Assembly: GCA_043802665.1 (NCBI GenBank)
Contig: JAZDKW010000002.1
Coordinates: 1-57,293 of the forward strand
DNA from: Patescibacteria group bacterium
Lineage (GTDB): Bacteria > Patescibacteriota > Kazan-3B-28 > UBA10110
Direction of reading: 5' to 3'
Length of the DNA: 57,293 nucleotides
Below the pieces are notes generated by a model. The model searched no databases. It was not told the DNA's origin and saw nothing but the letters and a program-made list of their open reading frames with translations. Of this stretch, positions 26,660 to 29,991 are shown piece by piece (within the stretch, counting starts at the first letter, position 1; the number at the start of each line of letters is the position of its first letter). Position numbers and translations under genes: made by a program.

Positions 26660-27012
26660 TACTATTGCCTATCGAGAGAATCGACATCCGAGATTCATCG
26701 TGAGGCAACTACGATCCATCCGCACCGCATGAAGGCGGAGCATATGACGACGGGCCGGTGAGACTTATCTCATCAACTCATCCGCGTCTCGTATTGGGCT
26801 CAGAAGTATCAAGTCTTTACAGCGCAGGTGGCTGGAGAGGAATTGGCAATCAAAAAAAAGGAGAAAGTTCTTTCTTTAATCTATGGTAGGTACAAGCCTA
26901 TCATCCTCCCCGGTCACCGAGCACTATCCAGGGTGGGAGGTCTGGTTTTCCTCCGCTGACGTCCCATCTCCGAATTAAGTTGAAGGGCCCCTAAGTGGGG
27001 CCCGAACTTTTT
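26660..27012 (+). ncRNA. Candidate structured non-coding transcript (about 340 nt, class unknown) ending in an intrinsic terminator
   Basis: No ORF of 60 aa or more on either strand. Several local hairpins are present. GGGAGG can pair with either the upstream CCTCCC or the downstream CCTCC. Terminator GGGCCCC-TAAGT-GGGGCCC plus TTTTT lies at 26985-27012. The 5' end is not defined. Confidence 0.35.
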
Positions 27013-27073
27013 AGATTGCCTATCATAGATCTAATCTGATACAATTTGACCAGGTTTCGATCATTATAAGAAT

Positions 27074-27184
27074 GCCGAGGTAGCTCCCGCCAGCAACGCT
27101 GGGGCGTAGCTCTTGCGGGCTGGCAGTGGTACCTGCCTGCCGGTTTACCTGCCGTTAGGCATGGTAGGCAGGGAGCAACTCCAT
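27074..27184 (+). pseudogene. Duplicated 5' exon of tRNA-Thr(GGU) interrupted by two hairpin insertions
   Basis: GCCGAGGTAGCTC [38-nt insert] AGTGGTA [41-nt insert] GAGCAACTCCAT. The non-insert parts are identical to 27222-27253. No 3' half follows. Confidence 0.7.
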
Positions 27185-27221: not shown

Positions 27222-27498
27222 GCCGAGGTAGCTCAGTGGTAGAGCAACTCCATGGTAGAGCATTCACTCTCTGCCCACTGGCAAAGAAATTTGTTAGTGA
27301 ATCCCGAATAACGGTCAAAGATTAGTGCCGAATTAAGACCGTGGCGGTAAAATCGCCCGAACGACTGACAAGGGAGGCTTCGTCTCGCAAGAGAAATGCC
27401 TAAGATACAGTCTAATCCTCTCGTATATGGTAATAATATTTAAGGAGAGGTGTAAATGAAGGAGTAGGTCGTGAGTTCGAATCTCATCCTCGGCTCCA
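27222..27498 (+). tRNA. tRNA-Thr (anticodon GGU) interrupted by a 202-nt intron after position 36; CCA encoded
   Basis: The 5' exon (27222-27256, GCCGAGGTAGCTCAGTGGTAGAGCAACTCCATGGT) and 3' exon (27459-27498, AAGGAGTAGGTCGTGAGTTCGAATCTCATCCTCGGCTCCA) join into a canonical 75-nt cloverleaf. Confidence 0.85.
27257..27458 (+). ncRNA. Group I-like intron in the tRNA anticodon loop
   Basis: The 5' exon ends in U and the intron ends in G. GACTG/CAGTC (a P7-like pair) flanks a hairpin with a GCAA tetraloop (P8-like). GGTCAAAG (J3/4-like), a GGCG-GTAAAAT-CGCC hairpin, and a terminal CCTCTC...GAGAGG hairpin (P9-like) are also present. Its length is similar to known about 200-nt bacterial tRNA introns. 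Confidence 0.6.
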
Positions 27499-28605: not shown

Positions 28606-28779
28606 ACATATCTTGGGGATGCAGGCTATGTCGCTCGCGAGCGACGCGGCGTATTATAATAAACAGTTATGATATTTCTACAACAGTATAACCCCACCCA
28701 TCCTCCCCTTATCTTAAGGGGAGGAGAAGAGAGAGGAGATTCATCACCCCCTCTTAAGATAAGAGAGGTAAGGGGAGTT

Positions 28780-29991
28780 ATGAATACCATTGCTATCAAC
28801 CAGGCGCCTTTGGCGGATCGGGTGCGGCCGAGTGGGCTGGAGGGGTTTTTTGGTCAGGAAGAATTGGTGGGCGAAAAATCGTTTTTACGGCAAGCGATCG
28901 CGACCGATACAACCCCCTCAATGGTTTTATGGGGTCCGCCGGGGAGCGGCAAGACCACCCTGGCCTATATTATTTCGAAACAAACTAACGCCGATTTTAT
29001 CCAAATCTCGGCAGTTAGTAGCGGCCTCAAAGATTTACGAGAAATCTTGGTCCGGGCGGAAGCTAATCGACAAACTGGCAAAAAGACAATTTTGTTTATT
29101 GATGAAATTCATCGCTGGAACAAAGCTCAACAAGATGCCTTGCTTCCTTATGTAGAAAAAGGAATCATCATTTTGATTGGCGCTACTACCGAAAATCCCA
29201 GTTTTGAAGTTAACTCCGCTTTAATTTCTCGGACGCGGGTGTTAGTACTACATAAATTAGATGAGAAAGCGATCAGAAAGATTTTGGATAACGCCTTGCA
29301 GGATAAAACTAACGGGTTGGGGAATGCAAACATAGAAATTTCTGATGAAAGCTTAGATTTAATTTCCCACGTAGCGAATGGCGATGCCCGGATGGCCTTG
29401 AATACTTTAGAGGTATGTGTTGGGCAGAATCAGCCCATTACATCCGAAGTAATCAAACAAGTTCTGCAAAAGATGCATCTTCAATACGATAAAACCGGCG
29501 AAGAACATTACAATATTATCTCCGCTCTGCATAAATCGCTCCGGGGCGGCGATGCGCACGCTTCGTTGTATTGGTTGGCCCGAATGTTGGAAGCGGGAGA
29601 AGATCCTTTATATGTCGCCCGGAGATTAGTGCGGTTTGCTTCGGAAGATGTGGGATTGGCAGATAATTTTGCCGTGGTCTTGGCGAATAATGTCTTTGAA
29701 GTCTGCCAGAAAATCGGGATGCCAGAATGTTCAGTCCATTTAACCCAATTAGTGATTTATCTTGCCCGTGCCAAGAAAAATATCGTAGCTTACCAGGCCT
29801 ATAGTTTAGCTAAAGATGATGTAGAAAAATATGGCAATCTGCCCGTGCCTTTGCATTTACGCAATGCCCCCACCAAACTAATGAAAGAATTGAAATATGG
29901 CGAAGGATATAAATATACCCCAATAGAAGATAGTTCAATCCAAACTTATTTACCCGAAGAACTCAAATCCCGCGAATATTTCCATGAATAA
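28780..29991 (+). CDS. rarA: Replication-associated recombination protein A (AAA+ ATPase)
   Basis: LWGPPGSGKTT, ILFIDEIHRWNK, GATTENPSF and the MgsA C-terminal helical domain. The ORF track start at 28669 would translate a REP-like repeat. Confidence 0.9.
   Translation: MNTIAINQAPLADRVRPSGLEGFFGQEELVGEKSFLRQAIATDTTPSMVLWGPPGSGKTTLAYIISKQTNADFIQISAVSSGLKDLREILVRAEANRQTGKKTILFIDEIHRWNKAQQDALLPYVEKGIIILIGATTENPSFEVNSALISRTRVLVLHKLDEKAIRKILDNALQDKTNGLGNANIEISDESLDLISHVANGDARMALNTLEVCVGQNQPITSEVIKQVLQKMHLQYDKTGEEHYNIISALHKSLRGGDAHASLYWLARMLEAGEDPLYVARRLVRFASEDVGLADNFAVVLANNVFEVCQKIGMPECSVHLTQLVIYLARAKKNIVAYQAYSLAKDDVEKYGNLPVPLHLRNAPTKLMKELKYGEGYKYTPIEDSSIQTYLPEELKSREYFHE

Follow-up and report, generated by a model that had tools for sequence, protein, structure and literature searches.

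The stretch of DNA analysed here, 57,293 nt from a Patescibacteria genome and hereafter called the window, contains a single tRNA-Thr(GGU) gene that is split by 202 nt inserted into its anticodon loop. The gene lies at 27222-27498 on the forward strand, with exons at 27222-27256 and 27459-27498 and a precursor of 277 nt. From its sequence, we regard the locus with a probability of about 0.9 as a functional tRNA-Thr(GGU) gene that is interrupted by a group I intron between nucleotides 36 and 37. The intron is compact and free of an open reading frame (ORF); it appears to be IC3-like and, by analogy with known introns, is probably self-splicing. The insertion site, the homology of the intron to a large family, its secondary structure and the selection on the exons are directly observed.

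Joined to each other, the two exons form a canonical 75-nt cloverleaf with the anticodon loop AUGGUAA, the anticodon GGU, a U as the discriminator base and an encoded CCA end. The intron starts with AGAGC and ends with AAATG. ARAGORN in intron mode places a 202-nt intron directly 3' of the anticodon of a tRNA-Thr(ggt) at [27222,27498], the only intron-bearing tRNA that it detects in the window (n = 1). This call, like the sequence itself, agrees exactly with the exon and intron borders proposed in an earlier reading of the letters alone (the sequence-only reading). That reading had also expected a canonical 75-nt tRNA-Thr(GGU) from the joined exons, which is confirmed by the sequence, by the call for the spliced product and by the uninterrupted allele of locus L003 described below. 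With default settings, ARAGORN makes no call at 27222-27498; together with Rfam at gathering thresholds it identifies a tRNA-Leu, a tRNA-Thr(UGU) and a tRNA-Tyr elsewhere in the window. A second tRNA-Thr(GGU) gene was not found in the window by ARAGORN in either the default or the intron mode. The minimum free energy (MFE) of the 277-nt precursor is -93.8 kcal/mol (z = -4.3), and none of 200 shuffled sequences was equally stable. The MFE fold contains the cloverleaf together with the intron helices P1, P2, P4/P5, P6, P7 enclosing P8, and P9. This z-score, the intronless alleles at the syntenic position and the score against a family model, both detailed below, imply that the split tRNA is not a product of chance.

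The insertion is seen as a presence/absence polymorphism. Four close relatives of the neighbouring RarA gene were compared together with their flanks, and the gene order ClpP, holB, TPR, tRNA-Thr(UGU), tRNA-Tyr and, further on, RarA is kept in all four. At the syntenic position, L003 and L006 contain an uninterrupted tRNA-Thr(GGU), whereas in L004/L005 (93% identity) and L001/L002 (90.6%) the gene is interrupted by this intron at an identical position. In blastn alignments, exon 1 of the window is identical to L003 5052-5087 at 36 of 36 positions, while exon 2 matches L003 from 5087 on with ~93% identity over a stretch that extends past the end of the gene. Hence, the insertion is precise to one ambiguous A. 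The terminal G of the intron noted in the sequence-only reading is present as G27458, the junction being fixed within 1 nt by the intronless alleles. Compensatory changes relative to the window have occurred in both the acceptor stem (GCCCACG/CGUGGGC) and the T stem of L001, which shows that the split gene is under selection as a working tRNA. The few differences among the introns of the window, L004 and L001 also preserve base pairs: P2 and P6 show exchanges of G·U to A-U, P4 shows exchanges of C-G to U·G, and the P8 loop is of the GNRA type in all three introns (GCAA, GUAA, GUGA).

To place the intron in a wider context, GTDB species-representative genomes were scanned with the pattern ACGACTR N{20,50} AAGATAYAGTC N{45,75} GTTCRANTC, made up of the R and S elements and the T loop of the tRNA. 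The pattern matches at least 119 stretches. In ~115 of the matches listed, the intron is the same and occupies the same position, the host being tRNA-Thr(GGU) without exception. Nearly all hosts among the matches listed are metagenome-assembled genomes (MAGs) of Patescibacteria, belonging to Paceibacteria/Parcubacteria groups, Saccharibacteria, Doudnabacteria, Moraniibacteriota and Gracilibacteria/Peribacteria; the complete Wolfebacteria genome CP011209 is also among them. When the splits are set by the rule that the exon ends in U and the intron in G, 115 of the 115 intron-bearing genes listed are tRNA-Thr(GGU) split after nucleotide 36, a result that is partly circular for the terminal G since the rule itself chose the splits. 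The junction CCATGGT/AA is found in 109 of these 115 genes, and ARAGORN calls the spliced product tRNA-Thr(ggt) for every one of them (115/115). The family comprises at least 111 distinct introns with lengths of 177-231 nt and a median identity of 67% to the window. A covariance model of the family (R1), built on an alignment (A3) of 100 members from which the window and its relatives of at least 90% identity were left out, gives one full-length match in the window at 27247-27468 with 200.6 bits and an E-value of 1.6e-59. This score is the fourth among ~118 strong matches over all loci, and no non-canonical pair is flagged in the R1 alignment of the window.

Several candidates did not withstand closer inspection. 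The pattern hits L022 (Marivirga) and L031 were ruled out as family members by R1. ARAGORN in intron mode misplaces the junction by 1-2 nt in ~40% of cases (L011, L015, L019, L023, L025, L030 and others), which produces the false anticodons Arg-GCG, His-GUG, Pro-GGG and Leu-GAG; inspection of the junctions revealed that the apparent intron-bearing tRNA-Arg(GCG), tRNA-His, tRNA-Pro and tRNA-Leu are mis-split tRNA-Thr(GGU) genes. A phage or virus as vector was rejected as well, with no match in INPHARED by blastn and with three stretches from a pattern scan of IMG/VR, none of which is a family member according to R1. The sequence-only reading was right that Thr(GGU) is outside the classical host tRNAs, but this host is very common in Patescibacteria, and the novelty of the intron is therefore smaller than had been assumed.

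A dead tRNA-Thr pseudogene, broken by the insertion of unrelated DNA, for instance a small mobile element, and with halves that are no longer expressed as a tRNA, would be in line with the silence of default tRNA finders and of Rfam at this locus, and a degenerate copy of the 5' half further upstream shows that tRNA fragments accumulate here. However, both exons are intact including the CCA end, the spliced product is close to the intronless orthologue in L003, and L001 keeps the split gene with its compensatory exon changes. The fact that one insertion site and one covarying structure recur in ~115 species among the matches listed, together with the lack of any other tRNA-Thr(GGU) gene in the window, makes a pseudogene very improbable.

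For the intron itself, a P1-P9 model was drawn on the window (Table 1) and scored on a plain MAFFT alignment (A2) of 111 introns with 10 nt of each exon. Standard pairs account for 92.4% of the cells, compared with 76% after shuffling and at most 46% when the partners are slid by 1-3 columns. Changes on both sides are found in 38 of the 54 pairs, and 1082 double-change cells were observed against 311 expected; none of 500 shuffles reached any of these measures. A model-fitted alignment reproduces the numbers obtained with MAFFT. Helices P1, P2, P3, P5, P6, P8 and P9 covary, and P4 and P7 are essentially invariant in the 111 introns. A U·G pair marks the 5' splice site in 110 of 111 sequences, G34 and G35 of the anticodon form G-C pairs with the CC of the internal guide in all 111, and the extension of P1 covaries, with double changes in most of its pairs. 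In P1, the anticodon GGU itself forms the exon strand opposite the guide GCC, which accounts for the confinement of the family to tRNA-Thr(GGU). In P3, double changes from C-G to U-A occur at three pairs in 4-5 sequences each, and in P8 all seven pairs covary. P4, which lies outside the scan pattern, has five pairs that are invariant in 111 sequences and a sixth that varies only between U·G and C-G.

The U·G pair in P1 and the covariation of the P3-P9 core in 111 homologues, in addition to the presence/absence polymorphism, bear out the 202-nt group I intron after U36 that the sequence-only reading had suggested. Its description of a GACTG/CAGTC pair around a GCAA-capped hairpin, which correspond to P7 and P8, and of a terminal P9 hairpin was correct in all parts. 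By contrast, the segment GGTCAAAG, which it took for J3/4-like, is actually the 3' end of the 5' strand of P4 together with J4/5. The segments CGAACGACUG and AAGAUACAGUC, both demanded by the scan pattern, resemble the group I R/S consensus. The J8/7-P7 segment of the window, AAGAUACAGUC, compares with AAGAUAUAGUC in the RF00028 consensus.

The terminal loop of P2 (L2) is of the GNRA type, and its sequence goes along with the form of P8. Introns with GAAA in L2 have a receptor-like P8 in 50 of 59 cases, and those with another L2 have a plain P8 in 42 of 52 (50/9 versus 10/42, Fisher p = 1.6e-12, a value that ignores kinship; several of the exceptions are artefacts of the crude classifier). The receptor-like P8 contains an asymmetric internal loop, CUAAN...UAUG or CUUCN...AAUG, and resembles the 11-nt GAAA receptor, while L2 loops of the sequence GCAA, GUAA, GGAA or GYGA are accompanied by a short plain P8 hairpin. 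The window combines GAAA in L2 with the variant CUUCG...AAAUG in P8. A tetraloop-receptor contact between L2 and P8 is typical of small IC3 tRNA introns such as that of Azoarcus.

Table 1. Features of the split tRNA-Thr(GGU) gene and its intron in the window, and loci of related features elsewhere.
Feature	Position	Strand	Description
5' exon, GCCGAGGTAGCTCAGTGGTAGAGCAACTCCATGGT	27222-27256	+	Acceptor 5' strand, D arm, anticodon stem 5' strand, loop through the anticodon
Anticodon GGU	27254-27256	+	Last three nt of the 5' exon
Predicted group I intron, 202 nt, no ORF	27257-27458	+	Synteny (absent in L003/L006, present in L001/L004), family model R1, covariation
3' exon, AAGGAGTAGGTCGTGAGTTCGAATCTCATCCTCGGCTCCA	27459-27498	+	A37-A38, anticodon stem 3' strand, variable loop, T arm, acceptor 3' strand, U73
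Encoded CCA	27496-27498	+	End of the 3' exon
P1	27254-27275	+	GGU/AGAG (27254-27260) with CUCUGCC (27269-27275); MFE fold, A2
5' splice site and internal guide GCC	U27256·G27273; guide 27273-27275	+	Within P1
P2	27276-27299	+	10 base pairs (bp), GAAA tetraloop L2 (27286-27289); 10/10 pairs with changes on both sides
P3 5' strand, UCCC	27302-27305	+	Pairs with 27372-27375
P4	27311-27342	+	27311-27316 with 27337-27342
P5	27320-27323 with 27331-27334	+	J4/5 AAA, J5/4 AA; covaries, with most pairs changed on both sides
P6 hairpin, GGCGG/UCGCC	27343-27357	+	4/5 pairs changed on both sides
P7 5' strand, GACUG	27363-27367	+	In R-like element CGAACGACUGACAAGGG; pairs with 27408-27412; presumed guanosine-binding helix
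P3 3' strand, GGGA	27372-27375	+	Pseudoknot with P7
P8	27376-27400	+	GGC/GCC and UCUC/GAGA; internal loop CUUCG...AAAUG; GCAA loop 27387-27390; presumed L2 receptor
J8/7 UAAGAUA and P7 3' strand CAGUC	27401-27412	+	Matches the RF00028 consensus
P9 hairpin, CCUCUC/GAGAGG	27417-27450	+	Apical part variable; 6/6 pairs changed on both sides
Omega-G, 3' splice site	27458	+	U/G split rule
Degenerate copy of 5'-exon nt 1-33	27074-27184	+	Repeat from 27071 (including the 3 nt that precede the gene)
Introns in tRNA-Tyr or tRNA-Asp	L011 7625-7895(-); L038 7162-7436(-); L056 6997-7291(-); L078 26-351
Examples of the ~195-aa ORF	L004 4970-5557; L001 4927-5514; L054 6472-7056; L112 4625-5218(-)

The intron of the window has the U·G pair in P1, the omega-G and the helix order P3 to P9 with a pseudoknot that characterize group I introns. 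From this architecture, a splicing mechanism can be proposed. The anticodon G34-G35-U36 would pair with the internal guide 5'-GCC-3' to form P1, in which a U36·G wobble would define the 5' splice site. In the core, P4-P6 would be stacked beside P3-P7-P8-P9 and held there by the P3/P7 pseudoknot and by a tetraloop-receptor contact between L2 (GAAA) and P8. Along the standard two-step group I pathway (PMC3984707), an exogenous guanosine bound in P7 would attack after U36, followed by the entry of the terminal G27458 into the G site and the attack of the 3'-OH of U36 on the 3' splice site. The outcome would be the ligation of U36 to A37, the release of the intron and a normal 75-nt tRNA.

Some points weigh against this interpretation. 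The shuffle control for the covariation ignores phylogeny; the control with slid partners, which keeps the relatedness of the sequences, is equally clear. The invariance of P7 and J8/7 was fixed in part by the scan pattern, and these segments consequently provide no evidence from covariation. P10 is weak in the window, with AAGGAG facing CUCUCU and one A·C mismatch. We infer the self-splicing catalysis, the guanosine-binding pair, the tertiary contacts, P10 and the subgroup by analogy, and the assignment to IC3 draws on the architecture and on what is known of the Azoarcus intron rather than on reference IC3 sequences. Finally, the Rfam model RF00028, run in E-value mode, reaches only 11.5 bits with an E-value of 4.7 (gathering score 50) in an alignment that is largely wrong and sensible only in the J8/7-P7 segment, and at its gathering threshold it matches none of 20 family loci tested.

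At gathering thresholds, Rfam makes no group I call in the window and reports only the three ordinary tRNAs. One Rfam model covers all group I subgroups, and we consider the miss to be a limit in the sensitivity of this single model, not evidence against membership. The check with the Rfam group I covariance model that accompanied the sequence-only reading is thus misleading for this intron family. Likewise, tRNAscan-SE 2.0 is not designed for such introns according to its authors (PMC8450103).

The weak P10 may also point to an intron that is derived from group I but has lost autocatalysis, so that it would need a protein cofactor (maturase or chaperone) or host nucleases. An ORF of ~195 aa with a helix-turn-helix (HTH) domain and a LAGLIDADG-like motif is located directly upstream of the tRNA gene in about half of the family, and LAGLIDADG proteins can serve as maturases. 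Yet neither this ORF nor a relic of it was found in the window by tblastn or by a search of the six-frame translation with a hidden Markov model of the ORF, and the intron nevertheless keeps all core positions that are invariant in the family and scores near the top. The ORF also stands beside an intronless tRNA-Thr(GGU) in L132 and L133, which is a misfit for an obligatory splicing factor, and small IC3 tRNA introns of the Azoarcus type self-splice efficiently. We therefore judge a loss of autocatalysis to be unlikely.

Splicing by an entirely different route is scarcely credible. An intron of the archaeal/eukaryal bulge-helix-bulge type, which is spliced by proteins, would share the location in the anticodon loop with archaeal tRNA introns, but the junction of the window is at 36/37 instead of 37/38, and the 5' junction is embedded in the 7-bp helix P1 instead of a 3-nt bulge. 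To our knowledge, bacteria do not possess a tRNA splicing endonuclease. For a group II intron, 202 nt is far too small and a domain V-like element is missing; against both types, the size and the conserved core are those of group I.

As a group I intron, the insertion in tRNA-Thr(GGU) is best compared with the IC3 introns of bacterial tRNAs, whose known hosts include tRNA-Ile(CAU) of Azoarcus, tRNA-Arg(CCU) of Agrobacterium and tRNA-fMet and tRNA-Leu(UAA) of cyanobacteria. Its architecture is of the IC3 type, with the helices P1-P9 only, neither P5abc nor P2.1, a site in the anticodon loop and the co-occurrence of L2 and P8 forms. Like the classical examples, it is ~200 nt long and ORF-less, follows directly after a U in the anticodon loop and ends in G. 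It also resembles them in a P1 formed from the anticodon and a 3-nt guide with a U·G pair, and in the combination of a GAAA loop on P2 with a receptor in P8. The 36/37 position is presumably the same site as in the Ile and Arg introns. It differs from the IC3 set in the host tRNA-Thr(GGU), in the guide GCC and in its occurrence in Patescibacteria rather than Cyanobacteria or Proteobacteria, and its J8/7-P7 segment looks less like that of Azoarcus than like the consensus of group I introns in general, as seen in Tetrahymena.

In the literature, IC3 is listed among the bacterial subgroups with reference to Azoarcus structures (PMC3984707), and tRNA-fMet and tRNA-Ile2 are mentioned as hosts (PMC8450103). 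For the candidate phyla radiation (CPR), a 2021 paper states that some tRNAs are hard to find owing to group I introns (PMC8172020), and a 2025 preprint on group I introns in CPR tRNAs, cited in PMC12641178, stresses a novel insertion site in its title. The introns reported there are the same kind of element in the same phylum, while the 36/37 site of the window is not novel. A tRNA-Thr is not named as a bacterial group I host in the literature searched, a search that the content of the 2025 preprint lies outside. Group I introns in CPR tRNAs have hence already been noted, and the novelty of the present one is modest.

Other tRNA introns of 185-250 nt were observed in CPR genomes after U35, namely in tRNA-Tyr(GUA) at three loci and in tRNA-Asp(GUC) at one. 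Two of the Tyr introns score only weakly against the model of the Thr intron (20 and 16 bits); they are probably separate group I families. Within the Thr family, L129 2155-2344, L130 2155-2324 and L131 2155-2361 share an identical upstream ORF and contain intron variants of differing lengths with 126, 110 and 163 bits, respectively; these are either internal deletions of the intron or assembly variants.

The surroundings of the split gene contain further tRNA fragments. The degenerate copy of the 5' exon is situated 148 nt upstream of the real gene and, lacking GGU, cannot form P1. It shares exact repeats with the gene, namely AATGCCGAGGTAGCTC (27071 and 27219) and GAGCAACTCCAT (27173 and 27242). 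Two GC-rich hairpins, 27087-27124 (38 nt) and 27132-27172 (41 nt), interrupt the D loop of the copy. The copy is probably a recombination scar outside the functional gene. Ahead of it, promoter-like hexamers (27016-27073) and a terminator-like hairpin (26985-27003) were observed. The two hairpins were also considered as dispersed repeats, which was rejected as no other copy of them exists in the window. The second one (window 27131-27173) is 86% identical over 43 nt to L071 2527-2567, a hairpin ~85 nt upstream of a tRNA-Thr(UGU) in a distant MAG, and may represent a small mobile hairpin element.

Copies of the 5' exon are also found 140-176 nt before the gene in other family loci. In L122 (7537-7697), L015, L035, L050 and L107 the whole 36-nt exon is repeated near-perfectly, and the copy in L101 is more diverged. 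The copies continue as an intronless junction GGTAA (GGTAATAAACAGGTC), followed by a decayed 3' half. The near-perfect copies vary in step with the gene that each of them precedes, sharing its lineage-specific acceptor sequence; this points to gene conversion, to selection or to a role of the copy as an alternative 5' splice donor. The spacer behind the copies was dismissed as a conserved structured RNA, there being little conservation beyond GGTAATAAACAGGTC and a T-arm-like fragment. In L054, the ORF is immediately preceded by a partial copy of the 5' exon (nt 1-25) at ~6400, and a perfect copy of 37 nt of the 3' exon follows at ~7933, 543 nt downstream of the intron-bearing gene; this arrangement looks as if a cassette of ORF and gene had been placed inside an older tRNA-Thr gene.

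The ORF of ~195 aa is encoded on the same strand as the tRNA, at -6 to +155 nt from its 5' end, in ~54 of the ~113 distinct family loci listed, and several copies are fragmentary. It is present in the closest intron-bearing relatives of the window, L001 and L004, whereas the intronless L003 and L006 are without it. When searched from the protein side, three of four clusters have an intron-bearing tRNA directly downstream; the tRNA-Thr(GGU) beside the fourth is intronless and differs in its anticodon stem. In this latter case (L132 1501-2153 and L133 350-1002), the ORF overlaps the start of the intronless gene, whose stem is UUUGC/GCAAA instead of the usual ACUCC/GGAGU; the altered stem could be a change of the target site that protects the gene in place of an intron.

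The protein family of the ORF comprises 1750 clusters, most of them without a name, and its named members are annotated as hypothetical, HTH-domain or DUF3606-domain proteins. An N-terminal HTH domain is followed by the motif G-x-G-L-Y-W-G-E-G, and G79, G81, E86 and G87 are invariant. The Pfam family LAGLIDADG_3 was matched below threshold in 8 of 38 members. A profile search of the PDB detected the HTH domain only, and an hhalign comparison with I-CreI, for which an approximate sequence was used, gave no match. An AlphaFold2 model of the protein, with a predicted local distance difference test score (pLDDT) of 88.7, had no significant Foldseek match in the PDB, while in BFVD phage LAGLIDADG and DNA endonucleases came up as weak Foldseek matches (E 2e-3 to 5e-2). 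These comparisons are no more than suggestive; the ORF may encode a free-standing homing endonuclease of the LAGLIDADG type.

In collaborative homing, a free-standing endonuclease acts together with an ORF-less group I intron, as in the case of the cyanophage psbA intron with F-CphI. The family resembles such a system in that the ORF abuts the intron-bearing gene in about half of the loci, that L003 and L006 are without both, and that duplicated exon fragments flank some of the loci. It is unlike the F-CphI case in the weak support for LAGLIDADG, in the window, which has no ORF, and in the ORF beside an intronless tRNA-Thr(GGU). A mobile system specific for tRNA-Thr(GGU), made up of the intron and a free-standing endonuclease, widespread in Patescibacteria and constituting a group I lineage missed by Rfam, is thus a tentative and rather doubtful proposal. 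If it applied, the endonuclease would cut intronless tRNA-Thr(GGU) genes, to which the intron or a stem change of the L132 type would give immunity, and exon duplications such as that at 27074-27184 would be scars of repair. In the lineage of the window, the endonuclease gene would have been lost and the intron retained. The cooperation of a homing endonuclease with an ORF-less intron would then explain the patchy distribution of the intron among close relatives as well as the scars of exon fragments.

The genes around the tRNA encode ClpP, the DNA polymerase III delta' subunit, a TPR protein, an F420-ligase-like protein, RarA and the ribosomal proteins L11 and L1. Homologues of the RarA protein place the window in Patescibacteria (CPR), close to Moranbacteria, and a cyanobacterial origin of the window was rejected, the HIP1 motif GCGATCGC occurring only twice. 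The longest RarA ORF in the window (region 28669-28780) begins 37 codons ahead of the start of its homologues (~402 aa), and the N-terminal extension spans a palindromic stretch rich in purines and pyrimidines (CCCCTTATCTTAAGGGGAGG...CCCCCTCTTAAGATAAGAGAGG); translation probably begins at the ATG at 28780. In the close relatives, a reverse transcriptase (RVT_1) gene is positioned 2-5 kb downstream of RarA (L001 8888-10338, L002 8888-10413, L004 11783-12778, L005 7064-8534), adjoined by a bAvd-like gene in L002 and L005, and these loci look like a diversity-generating retroelement.

With tRNA-Thr(GGU), the classical group I introns of bacterial tRNAs gain a fifth host. The internal guide of the intron reads the anticodon itself, and the family offers more than 110 natural variants of a ~200-nt ribozyme for work on structure and folding. 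For annotation, it means that tRNA-Thr(GGU) will appear to be missing from many Patescibacteria genomes, which distorts inferences on completeness and decoding, and the mis-splits of ARAGORN are a further hazard in CPR genomes. If the ORF indeed encodes a homing endonuclease, the family would provide a clear case of cooperation between an intron and a free-standing endonuclease in reduced genomes.

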